Source: Convolutriloba macropyga (Eukaryota). Taken from it: a stretch of DNA of 64,000 bases. Of this stretch, positions 44,951-63,737 are shown piece after piece; the first letter of the stretch is position 1; each line of letters opens with the position of its first letter. Both the position numbers and the translations under genes were made by a program. The stretch is from the NCBI RefSeq assembly GCF_964194025.1, contig NC_134470.1:20088001-20152000 (forward strand), read 5' to 3'. The notes beneath the pieces are model-generated. The model saw only the letters and a list, made by a program, of their open reading frames with translations. It was not told the origin of the DNA and did not search any database.

Positions 44951-45616
44951 TTAATCATCCTCCTCCTCTCTTCTTTCTGCCTCCATTATCCGTCTTTTCC
45001 TCGGAATATCTCTCTCTCGATTATTTCCCTCGTTTTCCTCCAGAACAGCACTAGAACTTGTACTGGGATGATTATCTTCACCCTCGCCCTGACTTTCATT
45101 TGCTCTTCTGATTTCTTTTGCCATGTAGCTCCGGTTGTAAATCATCAACCCACAGAACTCTCTCAAACTGAGAGTTGTCATCTTCCTTTCCCAGTGATCC
45201 CCGATTTTTGTGAATCTCTTGAAATGGAAATAAATTGAGCGATAGGCCCTGTCCGGGTTGTAGATCTGGAAGCTCAGTCGGCAGTATGATTTGCCGCAAA
45301 CCATGTAGTCCTGAATTACCTCGCAACGGGATGCATCTGTTTCCATTGATTCGCATGGGGTCATCGTTGTTTTCTTGTGTGTTCGGAAACTCAGTTGTCC
45401 ATAGGCAATAATGGACTCCAATTGCTCTGAGTAGAAAATGTCAAGCATTCTATGGAACACTCCTTTAGGCAACTCTACAGATTGCTCGAGCGCTTGTGTC
45501 GATTCTACTCTTTTTTCGAATTTCACGTTGTCTTCAGTTGAAGATATCAGAAGGCTTTTGGCGCAATGTCTGATTGAATACAAATAGACCTGGTCAAAGT
45601 CGTCTTTGGTAGCCAT
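44951..45616 (-). CDS. Polinton accessory protein, 221 aa, putative PC4-like ssDNA-binding fold with acidic/basic tail
   Basis: Intact ATG ORF. YCRLSFQIY..IYFHFKRF..WERKMTTLSLREFCGL resembles the PC4 pattern (YVSV.EF..IDIREY..KGISL..EQW..L). The C-terminus carries an NLS-like PRKRR. The fold call is tentative. Confidence 0.7.
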   Translation of the reverse strand: MATKDDFDQVYLYSIRHCAKSLLISSTEDNVKFEKRVESTQALEQSVELPKGVFHRMLDIFYSEQLESIIAYGQLSFRTHKKTTMTPCESMETDASRCEVIQDYMVCGKSYCRLSFQIYNPDRAYRSIYFHFKRFTKIGDHWERKMTTLSLREFCGLMIYNRSYMAKEIRRANESQGEGEDNHPSTSSSAVLEENEGNNRERDIPRKRRIMEAERREEEDD

Positions 45617-45705: not shown

Positions 45706-46071
45706 GAAAGTGAATTTGGCGATGGATTTTGTCAACGCAAACTATCGTGATAACACAAAATTTATAGCTGACAGTGCGTGAACAAAATTTTATGATTTTT
45801 AAATAAAATCTGTTATGTAATCCAGATAAATAATTGAAGGGAGACGCATCGTCTCAGGGAGAAAGTTTGCCTCATTGATAACAATTTGGAAAGTGAATTT
45901 GGCGATGGATTTTGTCAACGCAAACTATCGTGATAACACAAAATTTATAGCTGACAGTGCGTGAACAAAATTTTATGATTTTTAAATAAAATCTGTTATG
46001 TAATCCACATAAATATTTGAAGGGAGACGCATCGTCTCAGGGAGAAAGTTTGCCTCATTGATAACAATTTG
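45706..46071 (+). repeat. 183-bp near-perfect direct duplication upstream of the 221-aa ORF
   Basis: 45706-45888 and 45889-46071 differ at about two positions. Each contains the hairpin GAGACG-CAT-CGTCTC. Confidence 0.95.
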
Positions 46072-46219
46072 AAAAACAGAATTTAACAGCAAATTGAAAT
46101 TTTATAGTTAAAAACGACTCGAAAGGTATAAAAGCTCTATTTTCTTCAAAACGAAAGAACAAGGTATCTGACTAGTAATGTAATGAACAAGGTATCTGAC
46201 TACTAATGTAATGACAGTA

Positions 46220-49200
46220 TTGCTCGCTCCTTTAAGGAAATTTGTTATTGAAGTTGTGCATGATATGAGAAAGCAGAAGTTTTAAAATTTGGAAAACCAC
46301 CAAATTCCATATAAATGAACTTTTTGGTTGTGTCTGTAGATAGGTTTTCTAAGCAATTTCAGTTAGAGTTCTCTTCTCTGTGACAAGTACTTTGCTGAGA
46401 AGACTCAAAACAGACACAGGGTCCATTTTGGAAATCTTAAATCAGATGGCGGAAAATGATTGCAGCTAGACGTTTTCCTAATTCTGGTTTTCCCAAAGTG
46501 ATGCACGTCTCCTTATGCCACGATCCGAGTCCAACTTTGGAACTTAGAGGTTCTCTAGCTGTTGGTTTTGAAAAATTAATTCAAAAGCCAAGAACAGCTC
46601 CTAGCTCTATGCTATAACGCAAGGTCCACATCGGACGAAGAGCAATGATGGACTAAGTTCTGAGTTTGCACACTTTTAGAAAATGTATTCATGTTTCGAA
46701 AAAATCCAAATTTTTCAAAATCATCCAAATTTTTCAAAATCACCCAGCTAGAGAACCTTTGCAAAAATTCTAAAATTTTCGAAAAAATCCAAATTTTTCA
46801 AAATCACCCAAAGGGTCCCCCCTTTGCAAATTTTCGAAAAAATCCAAATTTTTCAAAATCACCCAAATTTTTCAAAATCACCCAGCTAGAGAACCTTTGC
46901 AAAAATTCTAAAATTTTCGAAAAAATCCAAATTTTTCAAAATCACCCAAAGGGTCCCCCCTTTGCAAATTTTCGAAAATTTTCGAAAAAATCCAATTTTT
47001 CAAAATCACCCAAAGGGTCCCCCCTTTGCAAATTTTCGAAAAAATCCAAATTTTTCAAAATCACCCAAAGGGTCCCCCCTTTGCAAATTTTCGAAATCCA
47101 AATTTTTCAAAATCAGCCAAAGAGTCCCCCCTTTGCAAATTTCCGAAAATTTTCGAAAAAATCCAAATTTTTCAAAATCACCCAAAGGGTCCCCCCTTTG
47201 CAAATTTTTGAAAAAATCCAAATTTTTCAAAATCACCCAGCTAGAGAACCTTTGCAAAAATTCTAAAATTTTCGAAAAAATCCAAATTTTTCAAAATCAC
47301 CCAAAGGGTCCCCCCTTTGCAAATTTTCGAAAATTTTCGAAAAAATCCAAATTTTTCAAAATCACCCAAAATTTTCAAAATCACCCAGCTAGAGAACCTT
47401 TGCAAAAATTCTAAAATTTTCGAAAAAATCCAAATTTTTCAAAATCACCAAAAGGGTCCACCCTTTTCAAATTTTCGAAAATTTTCGAAAAAATCCAAAT
47501 TTTTCAAAATCACCCAAAGGGTCCCCCCTTTGCAAATTTTCGAAAAAATCCAAATTTTTCAAAATCACCCAAAGGGTCCCCCCTTTGCAAATTTTCGAAA
47601 TCCAAATTTTTCAAAATCAGCCAAAGAGTCCCCCCTTTGCAAATTTCCGAAAATTTTCGAAAAAATCCAAATTTTTCAAAATCATCCAAAGGGTCCCCCC
47701 TTTGCAAATTTTTGAAAAAATCCAAATTTTTCAAAATCACCCAGCTAGAGAACCTTTGCAAAAATTCTAAAATTTTCGAAAAAATCCAAATTTTTCAAAA
47801 TCACCCAAAGGGTCCCCCCTTTGCAAATTTTCGAAAATTTTCGAAAAAATCCAAATTTTTCAAAATCACCCAAAATTTTCAAAATCACCCAGCTAGAGAA
47901 CCTTTGCAAAAATTCTAAAATTTTCGAAAAAATCCAAATTTTTCAAAATCACCAAAAGGGTCCACCCTTTGCAAATTTTCGAAAATTTTCGAAAAAATCC
48001 AAATTTTTCAAAATCACCCAAAGGGTCCCCCCTTTGCAAATTTTCGAAAAAATCCAAATTTTTCAAAATCACCCAAAGGGTCCCCCCTTTGCAAATTTTC
48101 GAAATCCAAATTTTTCAAAATCAGCCAAAGAGTCCCCCCTTTGCTCGCTCCTTTAAGGAAATTTGTTATTGAAGTTGTGCATGATATGAGAAAGCAGAAG
48201 TTTTAAAATTTGGAAAACCACCAAATTCCATATAAATGAACTTTTTGGTTGTGTCTGTAGATAGGTTTTCTAAGCAATTTCAGTTAGAGTTCTCTTCTCT
48301 GTGACAAGTACTTTGCTGAGAAGACTCAAAACAGACACAGGGTCCATTTTGGAAATCTTAAATCAGATGGCGGAAAATGATTGCAGCTAGACGTTTTCCT
48401 AATTCTGGTTTTCCCAAAGTGATGCACGTCTCCTTATGCCACGATCCGAGTCCAACTTTGGAACTTAGAGGTTCTCTAGCTGTTGGTTTTGAAAAATTAA
48501 TTCAAAAGCCAAGAACAGCTCCTAGCTCTATGCTATAACGCAAGGTCCACATCGGACGAAGAGCAATGATGGACTAAGTTCTGAGTTTGCACACTTTTAG
48601 AAAATGTATTCATGTTTCGAAAAAATCCAAATTTTTCAAAATCATCCAAATTTTTCAAAATCACCCAGCTAGAGAACCTTTGCAAAAATTCTAAAATTTT
48701 CGAAAAAATCCAAATTTTTCAAAATCACCCAAAGGGTCCCCCCTTTGCAAATTTTCGAAAAAATCCAAATTTTTCAAAATCACCCAAATTTTTCAAAATC
48801 ACCCAGCTAGAGAACCTTTGCAAAAATTCTAAAATTTTCGAAAAAATCCAAATTTTTCAAAATCACCCAAAGGGTCCCCCCTTTGCAAATTTTCGAAAAT
48901 TTTCGAAAAAATCCAATTTTTCAAAATCACCCAAAGGGTCCCCCCTTTGCAAATTTTCGAAAAAATCCAAATTTTTCAAAATCACCCAAAGGGTCCCCCC
49001 TTTGCAAATTTTCGAAATCCAAATTTTTCAAAATCAGCCAAAGAGTCCCCCCTTTGCAAATTTCCGAAAATTTTCGAAAAAATCCAAATTTTTCAAAATC
49101 ACCCAAAGGGTCCCCCCTTTGCAAATTTTTGAAAAAATCCAAATTTTTCAAAATCACCCAGCTAGAGAACCTTTGCAAAAATTCTAAAATTTTCGAAAAA

Positions 49201-51405
49201 ATCCAAATTTTTCAAAATCACCCAAAGGGTCCCCCCTTTGCAAATTTTCGAAAATTTTCGAAAAAATCCAAATTTTTCAAAATCACCCAAAATTTTCAAA
49301 ATCACCCAGCTAGAGAACCTTTGCAAAAATTCTAAAATTTTCGAAAAAATCCAAATTTTTCAAAATCACCAAAAGGGTCCACCCTTTGCAAATTTTCGAA
49401 AAAATCCAAATTTTTCAAAATCACCCAAAGGGTCCCCCCTTTGCAAATTTTCGAAAAAATCCAAATTTTTCAAAATCACCCAAAGGGTCCCCCCTTTGCA
49501 AATTTTCGAAATCCAAATTTTTCAAAATCAGCCAAAGAGTCCCCCCTTTGCTCGCTCCTTTAAGGAAATTTGTTATTGAAGTTGTGCATGATATGAGAAA
49601 GCAGAAGTTTTAAAATTTGGAAAACCACCAAATTCCATATAAATGAACTTTTTGGTTGTGTCTGTAGATAGGTTTTCTAAGCAATTTCAGTTAGAGTTCT
49701 CTTCTCTGTGACAAGTACTTTGCTGAGAAGACTCAAAACAGACACAGGGTCCATTTTGGAAATCTTAAATCAGATGGCGGAAAATGATTGCAGCTAGACG
49801 TTTTCCTAATTCTGGTTTTCCCAAAGTGATGCACGTCTCCTTATGCCACGATCCGAGTCCAACTTTGGAACTTAGAGGTTCTCTAGCTGTTGGTTTTGAA
49901 AAATTAATTCAAAAGCCAAGAACAGCTCCTAGCTCTATGCTATAACGCAAGGTCCACATCGGACGAAGAGCAATGATGGACTAAGTTCTGAGTTTGCACA
50001 CTTTTAGAAAATGTATTCATGTTTCGAAAAAATCCAAATTTTTCAAAATCATCCAAATTTTTCAAAATCACCCAGCTAGAGAACCTTTGCAAAAATTCTA
50101 AAATTTTCGAAAAAATCCAAATTTTTCAAAATCACCCAAAGGGTCCCCCCTTTGCAAATTTTCGAAAAAATCCAAATTTTTCAAAATCACCCAAATTTTT
50201 CAAAATCACCCAGCTAGAGAACCTTTGCAAAAATTCTAAAATTTTCGAAAAAATCCAAATTTTTCAAAATCACCCAAAGGGTCCCCCCTTTGCAAATTTT
50301 CGAAAATTTTCGAAAAAATCCAAATTTTTCAAAATCACCCAAATTTTTCAAAATCACCCAGCTAGAGAACCTTTGCAAAAATTCTAAAATTTTCGAAAAA
50401 ATCCAAATTTTTCAAAATCACCCAAAGGGTCCCCCCTTTGCAAATTTTCGAAAATTTTCGAAAAAATCCAATTTTTCAAAATCACCCAAAGGGTCCCCCC
50501 TTTGCAAATTTTCGAAAAAATCCAAATTTTTCAAAATCACCCAAAGGGTCCCCCCTTTGCAAATTTTCGAAATCCAAATTTTTCAAAATCAGCCAAAGAG
50601 TCCCCCCTTTGCAAATTTCCGAAAATTTTCGAAAAAATCCAAATTTTTCAAAATCACCCAAAATTTTCAAAATCACCCAGCTAGAGAACCTTTGCAAAAA
50701 TTCTAAAATTTTCGAAAAAATCCAAATTTTTCAAAATCACCAAAAGGGTCCACCCTTTGCAAATTTTCGAAAATTTTCGAAAAAATCCAAATTTTTCAAA
50801 ATCACCCAAAGGGTCCCCCCTTTGCAAATTTTCGAAAAAATCCAAATTTTTCAAAATCACCCAAAGGGTCCCCCCTTTGCAAATTTTCGAAATCCAAATT
50901 TTTCAAAATCAGCCAAAGAGTCCCCCCTTTGCTCGCTCCTTTAAGGAAATTTGTTATTGAAGTTGTGCATGATATGAGAAAGCAGAAGTTTTAAAATTTG
51001 GAAAACCACCAAATTCCATATAAATGAACTTTTTGGTTGTGTCTGTAGATAGGTTTTCTAAGCAATTTCAGTTAGAGTTCTCTTCTCTGTGACAAGTACT
51101 TTGCTGAGAAGACTCAAAACAGACACAGGGTCCATTTTGGAAATCTTAAATCAGATGGCGGAAAATGATTGCAGCTAGACGTTTTCCTAATTCTGGTTTT
51201 CCCAAAGTGATGCACGTCTCCTTATGCCACGATCCGAGTCCAACTTTGGAACTTAGAGGTTCTCTAGCTGTTGGTTTTGAAAAATTAATTCAAAAGCCAA
51301 GAACAGCTCCTAGCTCTATGCTATAACGCAAGGTCCACATCGGACGAAGAGCAATGATGGACTAAGTTCTGAGTTTGCACACTTTTAGAAAATGTATTCA
51401 TGTTT
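46220..51405 (+). repeat. Higher-order repeat: four copies of a ~475-bp cassette separated by satellite blocks
   Basis: The cassette ttgctcgctcctttaagg...aaatgtattcatgtt starts at 46220, 48141, 49548 and 50929 (periods 1921, 1407, 1381). The copies appear identical by eye. Confidence 0.95.
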
Positions 51406-54400
51406 CGAAAAAATCCAAATTTTTCAAAATCACCCAAATTTTTCAAAATCACCCAGCTAGAGAACCTTTGCAAAAATTCTAAAATTTTCGAAAAAATCCA
51501 AATTTTTCAAAATCACCCAAAGGGTCCCCCCTTTGCAAATTTTCGAAAATTTTCGAAAAAATCCAAATTTTTCAAAATCACCCAAATTTTTCAAAATCAC
51601 CCAGCTAGAGAACCTTTGCAAAAATTCTAAAATTTTCGAAAAAATCCAAATTTTTCAAAATCACCCAAAGGGTCCCCCCTTTGCAAATTTTCGAAAATTT
51701 TCGAAATCCAAATTTTTCAAAATCAGCCACAGAGTCCCCCCTTTGCAAATTTTCGAAAATTTTCGAAAAAATCCAAATTTTTCAAAATCACCCAAAGGGT
51801 CCCCCCTTTGCAAATTTTCGAAAATTTTCGAAAAAATCCAAATTTTTCAAAATCACCCAAATTTTTTAAAATCACCCAGCTAGAGAACCTTTGCAAAAAT
51901 TCTAAAATTTTCGAAAAAATCCAAATTTTCCAAAATCACCCAAAGGGTCCCCCCTTTGCAAATTTTCGAAAATTTTCGAAAAAATCCAAATTTTTCAAAA
52001 TCACCCAAAGGGTCCCCCCTTTGCAAATTTTCGAAAATTTTCGAAATCCAAATTTTTCAAAATCAGCCAAAGAGTCCCCCCTTTGCAAATTTTCGAAAAT
52101 TTTCGAAAAAATCCAAATTTTTCAAAATCACCCAAAAGGTCCCCCCTTTGCAAATTTTCGAAAAAATCCAAATTTTTCAAAATCACCCAAAGGGTCCCCC
52201 CTTTGCAAATTTTCGAAAAAATCCAAATTTTTCAAAATCACCCAAAGGGTCCCCCCTTTGCAAATTTCCGAAAATTTTCGAAAAAATCCAAATTTTTCAA
52301 AATCACCCAAAGGGTCCCCCCTTTGCAAATTTCCGAATTTTTTCGAAAAAATCCAAATTTTTCAAAATCACCCAAATTTTTTAAAATCACCCAGCTAGAG
52401 AACCTTTGCAAAAATTCTAAAATTTTCGAAAAAATCCAAATTTTTCAAAATCACCCAAAGGGTCCCCCCTTTGCAAATTTTCGAAAATTTTCGAAATCCA
52501 AATTTTTCAAAATCAGCCAAAGAGTCCCCCCTTTGCAAATTTTCGAAAATTTTCGAAAAAATCCAAATTTTTCAAAATCACCCAAAGGGTCCCCCCTTTG
52601 CAAATTTTCGAAAATTTTCGAAATCCAAATTTTTCAAAATCAGCCAAAGAGTCCCCCCTTTGCAAATTTTCGAAAATTTTCGAAAAAATCCAAATTTTTC
52701 AAAATCACCCAAAGGGTCCCCCCTTTGCAAATTTTCGAAAAAATCCAAATTTTTCAAAATCACCCAAAGGGTCCCCCCCTTTGCAAATTTTCGAAAAAAT
52801 CCAAATTTTTCAAAATCACCCAGAGGGTCCCCCCTTTGCAAATTTTCGAAAAAATCCAAATTTTTCAAAATCACCCAAAGGGTCCCCCCTTTGCAAATTT
52901 TCGAAAAAATCCAAATTTTTCAAAATCACCCAAAGAGTCCCCCCTTTGCAAATTTTCGAAAATTTTCGAAAAAATCCAAATTTTTCAAAATCACCCAAAG
53001 GGTCCCCCCTTTGCAAATTTTCGAAAATTTTCGAAATCCAAATTTTTCAAAATCAGCCAAAGAGTCCCCCCTTTGCAAATTTCCGAATTTTTTCGAAAAA
53101 ATCCAAATTTTTCAAAATCACCCAGAGGGTCCCCCCTTTGCAAATTTTCGAAAAAATCCAAATTTTTCAAAATCACCCAAAGGGTCCCCCCTTTGCAAAT
53201 TTTCGAAAAAATCCAAATTTTTCAAAATCACCCAAAGGGTCCCCCCCTTTGCAAATTTTCGAAAAAATCCAAATTTTTCAAAATCAGCCAAAGGGTCCCC
53301 CCTTTGCAAATTTTCGAAAAAATCCAAATTTTTCAAAATCACCCAAAGGGTCCCCCCCTTTGCAAATTTTCGAAAAAATCCAAATTTTTCAAAATCACCC
53401 AGAGGGTCCCCCCTTTGCAAATTTTCGAAAAAATCCAAATTTTTCAAAATCACCCAAAGGGTCCCCCCTTTGCAAATTTTCGAAAAAATCCAAATTTTTC
53501 AAAATCACCCAGAGGGTCCCCCCTTTGCAAATTTTCGAAAAAATCCAAATTTTTCAAAATCACCCAAAGGGTCCCCCCTTTGCAAATTTTCGAAAAAATC
53601 CAAATTTTTCAAAATCACCCAAAGGGTCCCCCCCTTTGCAAATTTTCGAAAAAATCCAAATTTTTCAAAATCAGCCAAAGGGTCCCCCCTTTGCAAATTT
53701 TCGAAAAAATCCAAATTTTTCAAAATCACCCAAAGGGTCCCCCCCTTTGCAAATTTTCGAAAAAATCCAAATTTTTCAAAATCACCCAGAGGGTCCCCCC
53801 TTTGCAAATTTTCGAAAAAATCCAAATTTTTCAAAATCACCCAAAGGGTCCCCCCTTTGCAAATTTTCGAAAATTTTCGAAAAAATCCAAATTTTTCAAA
53901 ATCACCCAAAGGGTCCCCCCTTTGCAAATTTTCGAAAATTTTCGAAATCCAAATTTTTCAAAATCAGCCAAAGAGTCCCCCCTTTGCAAATTTTCGAAAA
54001 TTTTCGAAAAAATCCAAATTTTTCAAAATCACCCAAAGGGTCCCCCCTTTGCAAATTTCCGAAAATTTTCGAAAAAATCCAAATTTTTCAAAATCACCCA
54101 AAGGGTCCCCCCTTTGCAAATTTCCGAATTTTTTCGAAAAAATCCAAATTTTTCAAAATCACCCAAATTTTTTAAAATCACCCAGCTAGAGAACCTTTGC
54201 AAAAATTCTAAAATTTTCGAAAAAATCCAAATTTTTCAAAATCACCCAAAGGGTCCCCCCTTTGCAAATTTTCGAAAATTTTCGAAATCCAAATTTTTCA
54301 AAATCAGCCAAAGAGTCCCCCCTTTGCAAATTTTCGAAAATTTTCGAAAAAATCCAAATTTTTCAAAATCACCCAAAGGGTCCCCCCTTTGCAAATTTTC

Positions 54401-57400
54401 GAAAATTTTCGAAATCCAAATTTTTCAAAATCAGCCAAAGAGTCCCCCCTTTGCAAATTTTCGAAAATTTTCGAAAAAATCCAAATTTTTCAAAATCACC
54501 CAAAGGGTCCCCCCTTTGCAAATTTTCGAAAAAATCCAAATTTTTCAAAATCACCCAAAGGGTCCCCCCCTTTGCAAATTTTCGAAAAAATCCAAATTTT
54601 TCAAAATCACCCAGAGGGTCCCCCCTTTGCAAATTTTCGAAAAAATCCAAATTTTTCAAAATCACCCAAAGGGTCCCCCCTTTGCAAATTTTCGAAAAAA
54701 TCCAAATTTTTCAAAATCACCCAAAGAGTCCCCCCTTTGCAAATTTTCGAAAATTTTCGAAAAAATCCAAATTTTTCAAAATCACCCAAAGGGTCCCCCC
54801 TTTGCAAATTTTCGAAAATTTTCGAAATCCAAATTTTTCAAAATCAGCCAAAGAGTCCCCCCTTTGCAAATTTCCGAATTTTTTCGAAAAAATCCAAATT
54901 TTTCAAAATCACCCAGAGGGTCCCCCCTTTGCAAATTTTCGAAAAAATCCAAATTTTTCAAAATCACCCAAAGGGTCCCCCCTTTGCAAATTTTCGAAAA
55001 AATCCAAATTTTTCAAAATCACCCAAAGGGTCCCCCCCTTTGCAAATTTTCGAAAAAATCCAAATTTTTCAAAATCAGCCAAAGGGTCCCCCCTTTGCAA
55101 ATTTTCGAAAAAATCCAAATTTTTCAAAATCACCCAAAGGGTCCCCCCCTTTGCAAATTTTCGAAAAAATCCAAATTTTTCAAAATCACCCAGAGGGTCC
55201 CCCCTTTGCAAATTTTCGAAAAAATCCAAATTTTTCAAAATCACCCAAAGGGTCCCCCCTTTGCAAATTTTCGAAAAAATCCAAATTTTTCAAAATCACC
55301 CAGAGGGTCCCCCCTTTGCAAATTTTCGAAAAAATCCAAATTTTTCAAAATCACCCAAAGGGTCCCCCCTTTGCAAATTTTCGAAAAAATCCAAATTTTT
55401 CAAAATCACCCAAAGGGTCCCCCCCTTTGCAAATTTTCGAAAAAATCCAAATTTTTCAAAATCACCCAGAGGGTCCCCCCTTTGCAAATTTTCGAAAAAA
55501 TCCAAATTTTTCAAAATCACCCAAAGGGTCCCCCCTTTGCAAATTTTCGAAAAAATCCAAATTTTTCAAAATCACCCAAAGGGTCCCCCCCTTTGCAAAT
55601 TTTCGAAAAAATCCAAATTTTTCAAAATCAGCCAAAGGGTCCCCCCTTTGCAAATTTTCGAAAAAATCCAAATTTTTCAAAATCACCCAAAGGGTCCCCC
55701 CCTTTGCAAATTTTCGAAAAAATCCAAATTTTTCAAAATCACCCAGAGGGTCCCCCCTTTGCAAATTTTCGAAAAAATCCAAATTTTTCAAAATCACCCA
55801 AAGGGTCCCCCCTTTGCAAATTTTCGAAAATTTTCGAAAAAATCCAAATTTTTCAAAATCACCCAAAGGGTCCCCCCTTTGCAAATTTTCGAAAATTTTC
55901 GAAATCCAAATTTTTCAAAATCAGCCAAAGAGTCCCCCCTTTGCAAATTTTCGAAAATTTTCGAAAAAATCCAAATTTTTCAAAATCACCCAAAGGGTCC
56001 CCCCTTTGCAAATTTTCGAAAAAATCCAAATTTTTCAAAATCACCCAAAGGGTCCCCCCTTTGCAAATTTTCGAAAAAATCCAAATTTTTCAAAATCACC
56101 CAAAGGGTCCCCCCTTTGCAAATTTCCGAAAATTTTCGAAAAAATCCAAATTTTTCAAAATCACCCAAAGGGTCCCCCCTTTGCAAATTTCCGAATTTTT
56201 TCGAAAAAATCCAAATTTTTCAAAATCACCCAGAGGGTCCCCCCTTTGCAAATTTTCGAAAAAATCCAAATTTTTCAAAATCACCCAAAGGGTCCCCCCT
56301 TTGCAAATTTTCGAAAAAATCCAAATTTTTCAAAATCACCCAAAGGGTCCCCCCTTTGCAAATTTCCGAATTTTTTCGAAAAAATCCAAATTTTTCAAAA
56401 TCACCCAGAGGGTCCCCCCTTTGCAAATTTTCGAAAAAATCCAAATTTTTCAAAATCAGCCAAAGGGTCCCCCCTTTGCAAATTTTCGAAAAAATCCAAA
56501 TTTTTCAAAATCACCCAAAGGGTCCCCCCCTTTGCAAATTTTCGAAAAAATCCAAATTTTTCAAAATCACCCAGAGGGTCCCCCCTTTGCAAATTTTCGA
56601 AAAAATCCAAATTTTTCAAAATCACCCAAAGGGTCCCCCCTTTGCAAATTTTCGAAAAAATCCAAATTTTTCAAAATCACCCAAAGGGTCCCCCCTTTGC
56701 AAATTTCCGAATTTTTTCGAAAAAATCCAAATTTTTCAAAATCACCCAGAGGGTCCCCCCTTTGCAAATTTTCGAAAAAATCCAAATTTTTCAAAATCAC
56801 CCAAAGGGTCCCCCCTTTGCAAATTTTCGAAAAAATCCAAATTTTTCAAAATCACCCAAAGGGTCCCCCCTTTGCAAATTTTCGAAAAAATCCAAATTTT
56901 TCAAAATCACCCAAAGGGTCCCCCCTTTGCAAATTTTCGAAAAAATCCAAATTTTTCAAAATCACCCAAAGGGTCCCCCCTTTGCAAATTTTCGAAAAAA
57001 TCCAAATTTTTCAAAATCACCCAAAGGGTCCCCCCTTTGCAAATTTTCGAAAAAATCCAAATTTTTCAAAATCACCCAAAGGGTCCCCCCTTTGCAAATT
57101 TCCGAATTTTTTCGAAAAAATCCAAATTTTTCAAAATCACCCAGAGGGTCCCCCCTTTGCAAATTTTCGAAAAAATCCAAATTTTTCAAAATCACCCAAA
57201 GGGTCCCCCCTTTGCAAATTTCCGAAAATTTTCGAAAAAATCCAAATTTTTCAAAATCACCCAAAGGGTCCCCCCTTTGCAAATTTCCGAATTTTTTCGA
57301 AAAAATCCAAATTTTTCAAAATCACCCAGAGGGTCCCCCCTTTGCAAATTTTCGAAAAAATCCAAATTTTTCAAAATCACCCAAAGGGTCCCCCCTTTGC

Positions 57401-57608
57401 AAATTTTCGAAAAAATCCAAATTTTTCAAAATCACCCAAAGGGTCCCCCCTTTGCAAATTTTCGAAAAAATCCAAATTTTTCAAAATCACCCAAAGGGTC
57501 CCCCCTTTGCAAATTTTCGAAAAAATCCAAATTTTTCAAAATTACCCAAAGGGTCCCCCCTTTGCAAATTTTCAAAAAAATCCAAAATTTTTCAAAATCG
57601 CCCAAAGG
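46694..57608 (+). repeat. 55-bp satellite array with length variants inside the Polinton
   Basis: Monomer AAAATCACCCAAAGGGTCCCCCCTTTGCAAATTTTCGAAAAAATCCAAATTTTTC. Variants include +10-bp TTTTCGAAAA, -3 bp, C7, a 19-bp short unit and a CAGCTAGAGAACC type. It is uninterrupted from ~51403 to 57608 and contains a 1791-bp internal duplication (52471 vs 54262). Confidence 0.98.
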
Positions 57609-57687
57609 AGAAGAAACTCTTAATCAGCATTGGGCGGATAACCACGGGGTCAACGGGCCATCGATTAACACTGAACGTGTGCAAGAA

Positions 57688-60600
57688 ATGGGCAATATGT
57701 CTCTCTTGAGTACAAAACAATCTGTTCGCGGTTTTTTTCAGACATTTCGATTTACTCTTGGGAATGAGCAGGTGGTCGATCCGTTCGAATACTTTGTGGC
57801 GAATGAAAGAGGTATCGTCAATTTTGTCAACAAACGGCTTGATTCAAGAACTATGAAATTTTCGGTATGTGTGCGTGTTGACTTCAGCAAACCAATATCC
57901 CTCGACAAAACTACTTCGTACTTCAACAGTGTTACAGAAACTGTTTCACGTTGTTTAAGTGAAGAAGAATTTTACCGACATGTTGACCAGATTCTCAATC
58001 AAATCAGTATATTTTGTACCGCCGGGAGCGGGTGGGTTATAGAAAGAATGGCTGTGTTCGATGTAAAAATTTGCAAGTACAGCCCAATGAGAGCAGCGAC
58101 CTATATACCTACTCCCAAAAAGATACAGAAACTAAGGAGAACTGTTTTGAACATTCAGAATCTTGATGACAGTTTGTGTTTCGTGTACTGTATCCTTGCT
58201 GCTCTCTTTCCTGTGAAAACTAATCAGCAACGTCCAAGTAGTTACAAAAGTCATTTGGGCGCCCTGTACTTCAATAAGAAGAAAATGCCAATGCCTTTAT
58301 CTGGTATTCCGGCTTTCGAAAAAAGCAACAATCTAGCAGTAAATGTCTATGCGCACGACGGTAATGAAATCTACCCTGCATATATTTCAAAGCAAAAACA
58401 AAATTCTAAAAAAATACATCTACTATTAATATCAAACGAAGAAAAGTCACACTACTGTCTCATCAAGAATTTGGACCGTCTGCTCAAGACGCTTCTGCGT
58501 TCAGATCGTACAGCATGTTCAAAGAATAATATCAGAAAATTTTGTGATCGATGCCTTCAAAGCATTGACAGGAACAAAATGACACAACACCGTCAGCTCT
58601 GTTTCGACCAAAGCCCATTGCTAATCCAAATGCCTGCCAGCTTGCAAATGGTACAATTCAGCAGCTACAACAAACAGACTAGATCTCCATTCGTTGTGTA
58701 TGCAGATTTGGAGGCGTTTGATGTGAAAAATGAGTCTTACGCTGACATGATTGACGATTATGGAGAAAATGTTTTGAACAGTTTCAACGCAGCAACGCTG
58801 CATATTGAAGATCAGTTTCCTTGTAGTTTTGGAGCTATTTTGATCGATATTAGGAGCGGAAAAGCAGAAAAACAAAAATTCTACCGCGGTAAAAATGTAA
58901 TAGCAACGTTGATGCAAACTCTAAGAGAGTGGACTCTCTGGGCATACGAAGAAAATCAGAAATTTAGGATACTGAATCTTGATTCTGCAAAAAAGTCGCA
59001 ACTTGTATCAAATTGGGGAGACCCCTGCTGTATCTGTGGTAAAAGTTTTGGAGACTCGGAGGATGACAAGGTTTTGCATCACTGTCATTTGACGGGAAGA
59101 GTTTATGGTGTCGCTCACAGCAAATGCAACATTGTGCACAGTGGGAAAATTTTTGCCTGTCTTCTTCCATAATCTATCCCGATATGACTCGCACCACATA
59201 ATAAAAAATCTGAAGCTCCAATCGGGGGAAGAGTTGAACGCAATAGCAAAAACAGACGAGACGTTTATTTCCTTTTCGGTTCGGGTACCAGTTGGAAGTT
59301 ACTTTGACAAAAGAGGATTAGTAAAAAATATCAAACACGATATTCGGTTTTTGGACAGCATTAATTTCATGGCGTCTAGTCTCGATGCACTTGCAAAAAC
59401 TTTAGACGAAAGTGATCTCCGCCTCTTAAAAGAAAGATTTCCTGTAGACACGAAAGAAAAATTTGATATGATCAGGAGGGAAGGTTTTTTTCTTTACAGC
59501 TACCTTGACTGCTCAGAGAAATTTGAAGCGTCTTTTCCGGAATATGGTTCCAACTGGATCAATACACTTTCTGGCAAACTTGAAGTTACACCAGAACAGT
59601 ACCAACAAGCTGTTGACGTTTACAAGATGATGAATTGTAAAAATTTTGGGGATTACCATGATTTTTATTTAACAGTTGACGTTTTTCTGCTTGCATGTGT
59701 CTTTGAAAAATTTCGAGATGTTTGCCTTGAGGTCTACAGGTTGGACCCAGCATGTTTTTACAGTGCGCCGAATCTCAGCTGGGATGCAATGCTTATTACC
59801 AAAGGAGTTGAATTGGAGCTTCTTCAAGAGTACGACATGTTGTTATTCTGTGAGAAAGCTATTCGTGGTGGCTTGAATGGCGTCGGTTCCTTGCGCTATT
59901 TCAAAGCCAATAATAAGTACCTTTCAGATTATAAAAGCAGTGAAGCTTCTGTTTTTGGGGCGTTCTTTGACGTCACTTCACTTTACGCTGGAACTATGAT
60001 GAAAAAACTGCCCATTGGTTCTTTTCAATGGGACGACACTCTAACAGTAGATGATATTGAGCATTTTGATTGCGATGGCGAATACGCTTTTTTCGTGGAA
60101 GTTGATCTCGAATATCCAACCGATTTGCACATTGATCATCAAGACCTACCATTGGCTCCCGAAAAACTTGTTATAGAATCTAGCTGGTTGTCTGATTACT
60201 GCTCTGACCTGAAGTCAAAACGATCTGCAAAAGTTCCAAAGCTCGTTGAGACTGTATTCGACAAAAAAAACTATATTTGTCACATCAAAAATCTACAATT
60301 TTATGTGGAAAAAGGACTCCAGATCACCAAAATTCACAAAGCGCTCAAATTTAAACAAACCAATTGGCTTTCTGTATACATCGAAAAAAACACGATGATG
60401 AGAAAAAGTGCCAAAAGTCCCTTTAAGAAAAATTTCTACAAACTAATGTCTAATGCTTGCTTTGGAAAAGAAATGGAAAATAAAAGAAATCGTCGTAAAA
60501 TTCATTTTGTTAGCGATGAGAAGGAAGCATCAAAGCTATCTAGAAAACCCAATTTCAAATCATTTGAGATTATAAGTGAATCTCTTTGCTCTGTCTCTAT

Positions 60601-61738
60601 GGCACAAAACAAAATTTTTTGGGATAAACCAACGCCAGTGGGCGCTGCGATTCTTGATTTGTCAAAATTGTCCTTGTACGGATTCCACTACAATGAGATG
60701 AAACCCCGATATGGAAAAAAGATTTTGGTAACATACAAAGACACAGATTCTCTTCTTTACCGAATAGAAACTGATGATTTTTATGAGGACATGAAAGAAT
60801 TTCAACACTTGCTTGATCTGTCCGACTACCCTACCGAGCATCCATTGTTCAACCCTGTCAATAAAAAAGTTCCTCTGACTATGAGGGATGAGCTCAATGG
60901 TCAGGTGATGGAGGAGGCTGTTTTGTTGCGATCAAAGTTGTATAGCATCAAGTATCAAGGTGGTGTGAAACAAAGTGCTAAGGGAGTGCAAAAAAGCGTT
61001 AAAAAAGCCTACATCATGACAAGTTTCTGAATTGTTTAAAGAGTCAGAGCGTAGAGAGGGCACCAATGACAAGAATAACCTCAGAGAAACATCAGATTTT
61101 TGTTATAATGACAAACAAAGTTGCCTTGAGTTGCTTCGATGATAAGAGATTCATTCTTGAACCAGGATTGGAAACCCTGCCACATGGTCACTTTTGGTTA
61201 AAGCAGAAGCCACCTAACAATGACCAAGCGTTATCCATTCCTGATGATGATGATGAGCAGACGTCTTTGAACAATTTTGATGAAAGCGAAGATGAGAATT
61301 TGTCGGACACAAACGAGAAACCATCTGACAAGAGCAGCGGGGCTGAACAATCGGAGGCCTTGGGCATCATTTCATCAACTCTTGACAGTTTTGGTAAGTT
61401 GCTTCATTTATAACACTGAACAATTGTTGCCGCTTCATTATAAATTTGACCAGTTTTTAAACCTTTTTGCAGAGGTGCCAGATCCAGGCTTTCTACCTCG
61501 TGACCTCCATGCTGACAGTGGCGATGCAGACATCGTCGATTGGAATGACTTGAGTGATGAAGAATATACAGTTGGCACCTCCTCCTTACCGCATAACCCC
61601 TTCATTGAGTACGAAGCTGTTGAATGTCATGAGGATGTTGAGACGGAGGAGGAGGGAGACGATGAGGAGGAGCTCAATGAAAGCGCGACAATCTTGCGTG
61701 CGCCCAAACGGAGGAGAACTGTAATCGACTCGGACTAA
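57688..61738 (+). pseudogene. Protein-primed family B DNA polymerase (pPolB) polyprotein, two frameshifts (~59135 and 61001-61006), one predicted intron (61394-61472)
   Basis: N-terminal terminal-protein-like region (GSGWVIE), vOTU-like NIQNLDDSLCF...HYCLI, ExoI YADLE, EndoVII/HNH-like CCICGK..HHCHLTG..AHSKCN, ExoII FHNLSRYD, polymerase motifs DVTSLY, KLMSNACFGK, YKDTDS and AKGV, and C-terminal DDKRFIL..TLPHGH. About 1320 aa if repaired and spliced. The frameshifts may be real decay or consensus errors. Confidence 0.93.
61394..61472 (+). other. Predicted 79-nt spliceosomal intron in the pPolB C-terminal extension
   Basis: G|GTAAGT donor and pyrimidine-rich ccttttTGCAG acceptor, with an AT-rich interior. 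Removal joins ORF 61066 in frame to ORF 61277 (..LDSF-E-VPDPG..). Confidence 0.8.
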
Positions 61739-61774
61739 CTTTCAAAATAGAACTTTTGTATGAATGCAGCTCAA

Positions 61775-62377
61775 TTATACAAGTGTAAGAGTATATTCAG
61801 TATTTAACCTACCATTAAAAAATCTTACAAGTCCAATCTCATTTATTAAATTTATGTTATCCAATTTTAATGCACAGCTCGCGCGAAATTGTTCAACATC
61901 AGAAAACACTGGGATCTTTTTCTTTTGAGGTGAACCGTTTTTAGTGAAGAACAAAATGGCAGCGTAAATGCAGTATAAACCGCATAAATTTGATGAAGCT
62001 GTTTGAACTGATGTTGATATTTCGTGCAAAACAAAATCTTTGCGATTATATAATCCTTGTAACCGAGTGTAAACATCTATAAAGAAAGCAAGTGGGATGC
62101 ATAGACTGTTCCAAATTATAATATTTTGGTACAACTTTTGTTTCAAGTTTTTGTTTGATTTGTTGTTCGCGGCCGCAGGAAATTTATAGTACTCGGGAAA
62201 AGCTAATAGTAAAATCCAATGTGTGCCTCGCGTCTTAGACTTAGATGTGTTGATTATTTGGAAAACGACAGCTTTTTTGTCAACTTTTGGAAAATTATCG
62301 GCCGACCACACGCCTCCAAACTCAAACTTGAGTTCCTTGAACTGTTTTACATTTGCAGCAATTGACACGCTATCAAT
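61775..62377 (-). CDS. Adenain-like (C5-type) maturation cysteine protease of the Polinton
   Basis: FGGVWSADNFP, IINTS...GTHW (catalytic His) and Q..SSNLCGLYC (oxyanion Gln, catalytic Cys). There is no in-frame ATG; ATT-GAT-AGC at 62377 sits where an ATG would be expected. Confidence 0.85.
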   Translation of the reverse strand: MDSVSIAANVKQFKELKFEFGGVWSADNFPKVDKKAVVFQIINTSKSKTRGTHWILLLAFPEYYKFPAAANNKSNKNLKQKLYQNIIIWNSLCIPLAFFIDVYTRLQGLYNRKDFVLHEISTSVQTASSNLCGLYCIYAAILFFTKNGSPQKKKIPVFSDVEQFRASCALKLDNINLINEIGLVRFFNGRLNTEYTLTLV

Positions 62378-62381
62378 TAGG

Positions 62382-63737
62382 TCAAGTGGAAGTCAGGAGC
62401 TGGTTTTTGCTGATATCTCGGGCGCTGTTTATAAAAACTTGACTAAACTTTTCACCAATCAGATAGAGCTCTACTGCATCGGCCAGAGCTGTCCCAAACG
62501 AAAGCTTAAGTGTGACTGGCGCTCCTGTGAGTTCCGGAAAAAGTGTCAAAGATTTAGATGCCTCCTGTGACGATGTCAAGTCAAATGTTAACATGTAGTG
62601 ATCGTCAAAATCGTCAAGCTCAATGCCGTTCCCACCATTTTTGAAACCCAAAGCAGTTAAAGTGTTATGATAAAGACGAGAATTGCTGCGAGCGTCGACG
62701 GGCGTTCCCGCAATTGGCAATCCGTTGCCCCGACTGATTTCTATGCGCGTTAACCCAAATTTGATGTAATGGAAGGGATCAGTTGCTAAAGTTCCGCGGA
62801 ATCTTGCATTAGCTATCACGCACATTGTTAATCTCCTGATAGGTTCTGACCCAAAAATAGATTCTTTAACAAAACTGTTTTGACCCGACTGAATTATGTA
62901 GCTTTTGCAAAGACTTTCAATGTACGAATATCTTGCTGGCGCTTTCAAAAGTGAACGTTCAATGGAGAGCTTGACAGATTCTGTAAGCGTAACTTTCCTC
63001 ACAAAAATTGACGCTTTTTCAACGACCGCTGTGAACGATTTTTTGGCATCATCGCCCAAGCCGATGAGGCTAAACTCGTTGCTGGAGCGATAGAGCTTGA
63101 CCCGCATGCTAACATTTGGCAACAGTAATTTTTCGCACGTGAGAAAATCAACATAAAGTGCGCCATAAAAGTTGAGCTGATAGTCTGAAGCTAGAGTTTT
63201 CTCCAGTCGCTTTGCGTACCACTCTGTTGTTGTTCGTTTGTCGTCTGGATCGGGATTGTAGGTGTAGCCTTGACATGCAGCCCAAGTTTTTTTGCTGTCG
63301 CTGTTTGTCGTTAGCTCAGTCTCTATAAAAGCTCGATGATGATAAGTATTATTACTGTCTGATATCAAGCAGCCGTTCAGATAGACCTCAACCTGTGAAA
63401 ATAAACTATGTAGATTGTTGTTTGTGAAGAACACTGCCGTGCCGTCGGATGCCTTTACTTTGTTTCTTCCATCCGCATCATAAATGCTTGCGACCAAAGA
63501 CAGGTGAAAATAATTGAGGTCAATACAGTTCCTGTTGTCCCCACTAACGACAAAATCAAGAGTAGGTCCATTTGGTCCATACTGCGTGAAAACTTCTTGA
63601 TCGAAAGCACTTTCATAGTTTACGAGAACACTCGGTTTTTCGAAAAAATCCAGAGCCGTGTGAGTCACTGGGTTACCAATATCGGCTGCAAGACTTTTGA
63701 AAGACGCTCCTACTACTACTTCACTCGATGATACCAT
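62382..63737 (-). CDS. Double jelly-roll major capsid protein (Polinton PY / hexon-like), 451 aa
   Basis: Intact ORF with Polinton MCP patterns ALDFFEKP, GPTLDFVVSG..IDL and NNNLHSLFSQVEVYLNG.LIS....Y.HRAFIE. Size and position next to the protease fit. Confidence 0.9.
   Translation of the reverse strand: MVSSSEVVVGASFKSLAADIGNPVTHTALDFFEKPSVLVNYESAFDQEVFTQYGPNGPTLDFVVSGDNRNCIDLNYFHLSLVASIYDADGRNKVKASDGTAVFFTNNNLHSLFSQVEVYLNGCLISDSNNTYHHRAFIETELTTNSDSKKTWAACQGYTYNPDPDDKRTTTEWYAKRLEKTLASDYQLNFYGALYVDFLTCEKLLLPNVSMRVKLYRSSNEFSLIGLGDDAKKSFTAVVEKASIFVRKVTLTESVKLSIERSLLKAPARYSYIESLCKSYIIQSGQNSFVKESIFGSEPIRRLTMCVIANARFRGTLATDPFHYIKFGLTRIEISRGNGLPIAGTPVDARSNSRLYHNTLTALGFKNGGNGIELDDFDDHYMLTFDLTSSQEASKSLTLFPELTGAPVTLKLSFGTALADAVELYLIGEKFSQVFINSARDISKNQLLTST

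Follow-up and report, generated by a model that had tools for sequence, protein, structure and literature searches.

A 64,000-nucleotide stretch of the genome of Convolutriloba macropyga (contig NC_134470.1, positions 20,088,001 to 20,152,000; hereinafter the window) carries on its + strand a Polinton (Maverick/adintovirus-type) gene for a protein-primed DNA polymerase of family B (pPolB), with a 79-nt intron near the 3′ end. The segment behind this intron is likely the spliced last exon of the gene, coding for a conserved, acidic and predicted disordered tail that would combine a likely nuclear-import signal with partner-docking motifs. As judged from its sequence distribution, the tail is a conserved accessory of one Polinton polymerase lineage. 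The relevant features, in window coordinates, are:

57688..59172, + strand: first broken piece of pPolB, with the N-terminal part, the start of the exonuclease and an endonuclease-VII-like insert (ORF of 494 aa; PF02945, E = 2.4e-5)
59105..61030, + strand: second broken piece of pPolB, with exonuclease and polymerase motifs (ORF of 641 aa; DVTSLY at 59969, KLMSNACFG at 60440, YKDTDS at 60734)
61009..61393, + strand: the polymerase fold ends here (DDKR..TLPHGH, to 61191), followed as far as the donor by an acidic linker of poor conservation
61394..61472, + strand: phase-1 GT-AG intron of 79 nt, read directly, with its position and phase recurring in other families
61473..61738, + strand: last exon, conserved tail as defined by the tail profile, predicted disordered
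61478..61492, + strand: block 1, PDPGF (PDPG invariant in 13/13 alignment rows)
61532..61555, + strand: block 2, IVDWNDLS (hydrophobic-D-W/F-x-x-L), found across families and looser than blocks 1 and 3
61595..61624, + strand: block 3, NPFIEYEAVE (PFIxxEAxE)
61619..61633, + strand: VECHE, proposed as LxCxE-like; a local variant overlapping block 3
61703..61735, + strand: PKRRR basic cluster (61703..61717; predicted NLS) together with the terminal IDSD

The polymerase gene and its element

The structure predicted for the sister protein P0109 has matches to the phi29 polymerase (E = 1.6e-8) as well as to the PolBs of densoviruses/bidnaviruses and adintoviruses (E = 4e-36 to 7e-35). The protein of one sister family shows 98% identity to an entry listed by NCBI and UniRef under the acoel C. 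macropyga. Both this fold and the motifs in the window are those of the protein-primed family B polymerase by which a Polinton/Maverick is recognized. Beyond the window, a packaging ATPase is encoded at L071 (3689-4408; Pox_A32, E = 1.5e-8), and the candidate integrase or capsid ORFs (L071 1471-1845 and window 62382-63737) have no match in Pfam. A protein-primed family B polymerase with a packaging ATPase nearby is thus what the element shares with Polintons/adintoviruses, whose pPolB layout is given as TP-vOTU-EXO-PALM in the available portions of two sources (PMC11161782, PMC8502044). In contrast, those portions describe neither a C-terminal tail nor a spliceosomal intron, whereas the pPolB studied here has a conserved tail after the polymerase, which in one clade sits behind a conserved intron.

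The window's own copy of this Polinton is decayed. According to the ORF list, its pPolB frame is broken twice upstream, resulting in the segments 57688-59172, 59105-61030 and, starting near 61009, the frame that contains DDKR. Contigs from public runs align with the window over both breaks without gaps, and therefore the breaks are not assembly errors; because of them, the window copy would not make the tailed polymerase. The first piece contains two Cys/His motifs, CFVYC at 58177 and HYCLI at 58450, which we take to be OTU catalytic motifs. An N-terminal zinc-finger part, present in L077, L078 and P0005, is missing from this first ORF. In the third frame, DDKR starts at 61138 and TLPHGH at 61174, followed by 67 codons before the donor, 17 of them for D or E; the initial annotation of this stretch had given ~65 residues, described as acidic. 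The sequence of this linker varies between families.

Downstream of pPolB lie convergent genes on the − strand. Between the tail and a 451-aa ORF, an open frame on that strand (~61770-62380) displays GTHW and CGLYC motifs, resembling an adenain-type cysteine protease, and ends near the stop codon of the tail. Directly 5′ of the polymerase ORF there is a long tandem array (~46000-57610) with a unit of ~50-65 nt, and on its far side a 221-aa ORF with a basic-acidic end (44951-45616, − strand; no Pfam match), which is possibly part of the Polinton element.

The C-terminal tail and its candidate partners

A 13-row profile of the tail, searched against 1.84 billion representatives (E up to 0.001; clusters at 50% identity), recovered 76 matches, of which 75 are tail-like; one, the plant repeat protein P0141, was dropped as a false hit. 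On reading, about one-fifth of these 75 are families from the genome studied here, and in 21 the polymerase end shares an ORF with the tail; the database proteins P0005 (1403 aa), P0013, P0015 and P0109 have polymerase and tail in a single chain. In the 64 clusters that could be scored (11 others had no anchor or too little sequence upstream), PDPG comes after an acceptor-like signature in 24 of the 43 stand-alone tails as compared to none of the 21 polymerase-fused ones (Fisher p = 4e-6, with non-independent rows). Among 31 further pPolBs, two have the tail, and 28 end no more than about 45 residues past the polymerase end motif or are without a tail there. As most of the other pPolBs retrieved do without it, the pPolB family as a whole does not need the tail. 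In the loci L054 and L058-L060, a family of dozens of near-identical copies, a Gln/Ser-rich repeat of variable length extends the linker before the tail.

In an AlphaFold2 model of P0109 built with 100 sequences, residues 748-913 have pLDDT <50, i.e., the whole tail is predicted to be disordered. Pfam has no family for the tail, a match to E7 in 1 of 45 members (E = 0.25) being within noise; the tail profile has no match among PDB sequences, and no homologue was recovered when the last exon by itself served as the query. Likewise, the ESM Atlas yielded no usable match and IMG/VR no related locus. Neither the tail nor the intron is described in the literature searched; the supplements of PMC8502044 and of 10.1101/2023.08.22.554363 (PolB alignments), as well as Repbase, lie beyond the portions covered and may show them.

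NPFIEYEA (61595-61618), VECHE and PKRRR all lie where the initial annotation had placed them, and its FIxxEA motif proved to be conserved: PFIxxEAxE is present in 68 of the 75 tail clusters, a count that is partly circular, as the profile used for selection contains the motif and related rows are non-independent. The expectation of a C-terminal NLS-like cluster was also borne out, with KRRR or a similar stretch in sister families; a basic cluster follows block 3 in 41 and an acidic-serine end is seen in 42 of the 68 clusters, some of which are fragments or have the basic cluster before block 3. The classical monopartite NLS consensus is K-K/R-x-K/R. PKRRR fits this consensus within a predicted disordered region, and we believe that it probably functions as a classical NLS.

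Accordingly, we envisage that the host spliceosome would excise the intron such that the polymerase ends in the disordered tail, the basic cluster would bring this tailed polymerase into the nucleus, and the aromatic-acidic blocks would bind a partner. This binding might be tuned by phosphorylation of the acidic serines, which we assume to be CK2-type sites. The partner is most plausibly a chromatin protein. Precedence for such an interaction is offered by Spt5, in which F180, E184 and V187 of the acidic N-terminal tail are needed for binding H3-H4, as stated in the accessible part of the source (PMC8886531). In the confirmed Spt5 gene of the host, an upstream exon ends in AGFILDEA, the sole such motif in the 19.8 kb scanned, and the next exon would, given the predicted splice, supply V at +7. 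The probable first exon of the host Spt6, assigned by its location 5′ of a PF14632 match, reads FFDNEAEL. Further, the tails of L052 and P0015 read FILDEA, the same as the host Spt5.

The tail and the Spt5 N-terminus share F-x-x-x-E-A, an acidic disordered setting and attachment to a processive nucleic-acid machine, with F at position 0 of block 3 in 66/68 and E at +4 in 62/68 clusters (figures that are partly by construction). They differ in the +7 position (E in 59/68 and V in 2/68, under the same circularity), in the C-terminal location of the tail, in its two extra blocks and in its having no Pfam match to Spt5_N. Given the absence of V at +7, we do not class the tail as an Spt5N motif. 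A complex prediction of the tail with the host H3-H4 tetramer, run without an alignment, scored 0.00, a value that speaks neither for nor against binding. The host motif exons had no useful match among PDB sequences, and the literature searched held no biological paper on FIDDEA, FIxxEA, FxxxEA, FxDxEA or FLDxEA, and none linking the Claspin, FANCM, SPT5 and SPT6 motifs. The KAF and DSE motifs of Mrc1, taken from the part of PMC11383432 at hand, were also compared and do not match the tail. By analogy, we tentatively suggest that block 3 may bind histones or a histone-chaperone site in the manner of the Spt5 N-terminal motif. More speculatively still, PFIxxEAxE might mimic the Spt5/Spt6 motif, with the viral polymerase capturing or displacing the histones of the host while copying a template wrapped in chromatin and nuclear import being specified in the same spliced exon.

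About as likely as such Spt5-like action is that the conserved blocks instead dock on the replication proteins of the element itself (the polymerase core, the terminal-protein region or another viral protein) or restrain the enzyme as an acidic mimic of DNA, no host protein being involved. Acidic tails of phage replication proteins work in this way, and the conservation of the blocks across very distant polymerases, with ~40-46% identity in the polymerase between clades, is consistent with it. Against this, AlphaFold2 placed no part of the tail confidently on the polymerase, although a low score constitutes weak evidence and the model was devoid of the N-terminal region.

The intron and its history

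The intron predicted by the initial annotation, a canonical GT-AG intron of 79 nt, is present at 61394-61472 in phase 1. It displays the full set of U2-type spliceosomal signals (GT donor, branch point, pyrimidine tract and AG acceptor): G|GTAAGT as the donor (61394), TTGAC as a branch-like element (61446-61450, 23 nt before the intron end) and TTTTTGCAG| as the acceptor, ending at 61472. At window position 61396, public runs mostly have G, which turns the donor into GTGAGT, the form also present in L002; either variant is a good donor. In contigs of the four public runs, all from one study, no joint is seen at the intron, which bears on splicing in neither direction. With the intron removed, the reading frame passes into the exon closed by TAA at 61736-61738, and the unspliced frame stops at 61411-61413, upstream of PKRRR, just as had been proposed.

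Genome searches gave at least 42 matches at the DNA level and at least 97 with the tail peptide, from which 30 loci each and 10 more were taken, the sets overlapping. Across nine representatives of the intron-bearing families of this genome, an AG lies 7 nt 5′ of the PDPG codon in 9/9, as compared to no more than 2/9 at any other offset from 2 to 40. In each of them, TTT-G, TTC-G or TAC-G is followed by a GT donor in phase 1; the introns range from 61 to 99 nt in length and are unrelated in sequence. The window intron is 52-57% alike to those of seven other families, as measured by forced global alignment, and in exon 2, 18-25 codons differ between families with the residue unchanged. A metagenome contig (L091) has a 128-nt intron at the identical position and phase. 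The expected conservation of the splice sites in sister Polintons therefore holds for all nine representatives and L091; it fails in the two closest copies of the window, L002 (91% identical; GG at the acceptor) and L003 (acceptor lost), both decayed, which do not keep the acceptor site.

In the loci L004-L008 the intron is precisely absent (TTT G|AT GTT CCA versus TTT G|intron|AG GTG CCA), and in L077 an open stretch of 961 codons runs from the polymerase through the tail. Since a single frame covers both polymerase and tail in such intronless sister families, the tail is part of the polymerase, as the initial annotation had proposed. Its description of the module as splicing-dependent applies to the intron-bearing families, whereas other families carry the tail without any intron. 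The intron is also absent in P0005 and in the L054 clade, and L010 (2000-2006) and L016 (1854-1860) show an imprecise loss with six in-frame bases retained; these bases, CTACAG, match the L012/L029 intron at its 3′ end. In L043, L049, P0003 and P0004 the intron is free of stops and divisible by three in length, and consequently gene callers read through it and intron letters enter the protein.

We accordingly consider it very likely, from the sequence signals and their conservation, that the host spliceosome removes the intron routinely. If its retention were instead a regulated switch between a tailed nuclear and a tail-less polymerase, one could point to the early stop of the unspliced frame in 8/9 representatives, to the existence of tail-less pPolBs and to the weakness of some donors (GTTATG, GTTGTC). 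However, there is no intron in L004-L008, L010/L016, P0005 and the L054 clade, and in L043/L049 and P0004 it stays open, its length being divisible by three. With the intron absent or open in so many families, a truncated form of the polymerase is not kept, making such a switch improbable; the carriage of the tail without an intron in sister families indicates that splicing is probably routine rather than regulated.

Two further observations concern introns and polymerase fragments elsewhere in this genome and in the databases. A distant high-copy clade (L054, L058, L056) has a different phase-1 intron in the pPolB catalytic region, just 5′ of the SAKG/SVKG motif, with a donor that looks like GC in L054 and L058; many database fragments of the L054 clade begin at that position. 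The loci L012, L013, L027 and L029 (G000:C7, ~6.66-6.68 Mb) consist of ~1.5-kb tandem repeats of polymerase 3′ fragments that include the intron.

Quick trees of the polymerase end, with 59 rows (from an unfinished search and excluding four short rows) and 22 rows, place all intron-bearing rows in a single clade (SH-aLRT 91 and 95, respectively), which also contains the intronless L004 family, L010/L016 and P0005. In an AU test, a grouping of just the nine intron-bearing rows was rejected (p = 6.4e-5). For P0003 and P0006 the intron status was deduced from the protein, and P0005 may be transcript-derived. The tail, but not the window-type intron, is also present in a second, distant clade. With midpoint rooting, these relationships make quite likely a single gain of the intron within one polymerase clade, followed by its loss in at least the L004 family; recombination between families could produce the same distribution. 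Spliceosomal introns within endogenous polinton-like elements are likewise seen in dinoflagellates, where, in the portion of the source available, the introns (introners) are insertions of intron-making transposons (PMC12166617). Unlike these, the intron described here is old, conserved in position, diverged in sequence and located in an animal element.

The Rb-binding reading and the significance of the tail

The initial annotation had further read VECHE and the acidic patch after it as a module binding the Rb pocket, comparable to the LxCxE motifs of E1A, E7 and large T. The CxE and the downstream acidic patch are indeed found in the window copy and in L003, which reads VDCQE, but in no other copy, and Cys occupies the +8 position in 8/39 rows; adintoviruses, moreover, encode LxCxE proteins (the part of PMC8502044 at hand). 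Yet the first position here is Val rather than Leu, LxCxE is found in none of the 75 tail clusters, C at +8 together with E at +10 is seen in 0/68, and the 91%-identical copy L002 reads VECLV. The anticipated conservation of xxCHE in sister Polintons did not materialize: [LIVM]xCxE is present at this position in 1/38 distinct places of the genome (39 rows, two of them from one place), plus L003, and arises in 3% of 20,000 shuffles of the exon, which is near chance. The Oncoid genes of adintoviruses form, according to the same portion of PMC8502044, ORFs of their own that lie upstream of PolB and contain zinc motifs. Thus, while the window copy has CxE and an acidic patch in common with the LxCxE oncoproteins and Oncoid genes, the tail differs from them in the absence of Leu, of conservation, of a zinc motif and of a separate gene. 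By its sequence distribution, VxCxE is a feature of one small subfamily, the window copy and one close copy, and we regard binding to Rb as very improbable.

Even less credible is a chance GT-AG pair followed by a separate small gene or noise: although a 152-codon ATG ORF (61280-61738) covers the last exon, its upstream part is not conserved, the position and phase of the intron are fixed across families, and intronless relatives are one-frame fusions.

The favored interpretation, a spliced last exon coding for a disordered tail with a predicted NLS and docking motifs, bears on both the polymerase and the element. Polinton polymerases have so far been described in terms of terminal protein, protease, exonuclease and palm; a motif-bearing tail, represented by at least 75 sequence clusters, offers a handle on nuclear entry and chromatin handling that is testable with short peptides. 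Annotation based only on ORFs truncates such polymerases before their predicted NLS. The intron, in turn, suggests that the host has long transcribed and spliced these elements, and that intron loss, precise as well as imprecise, has taken place in a DNA virus-like element for which no reverse transcriptase is in view.
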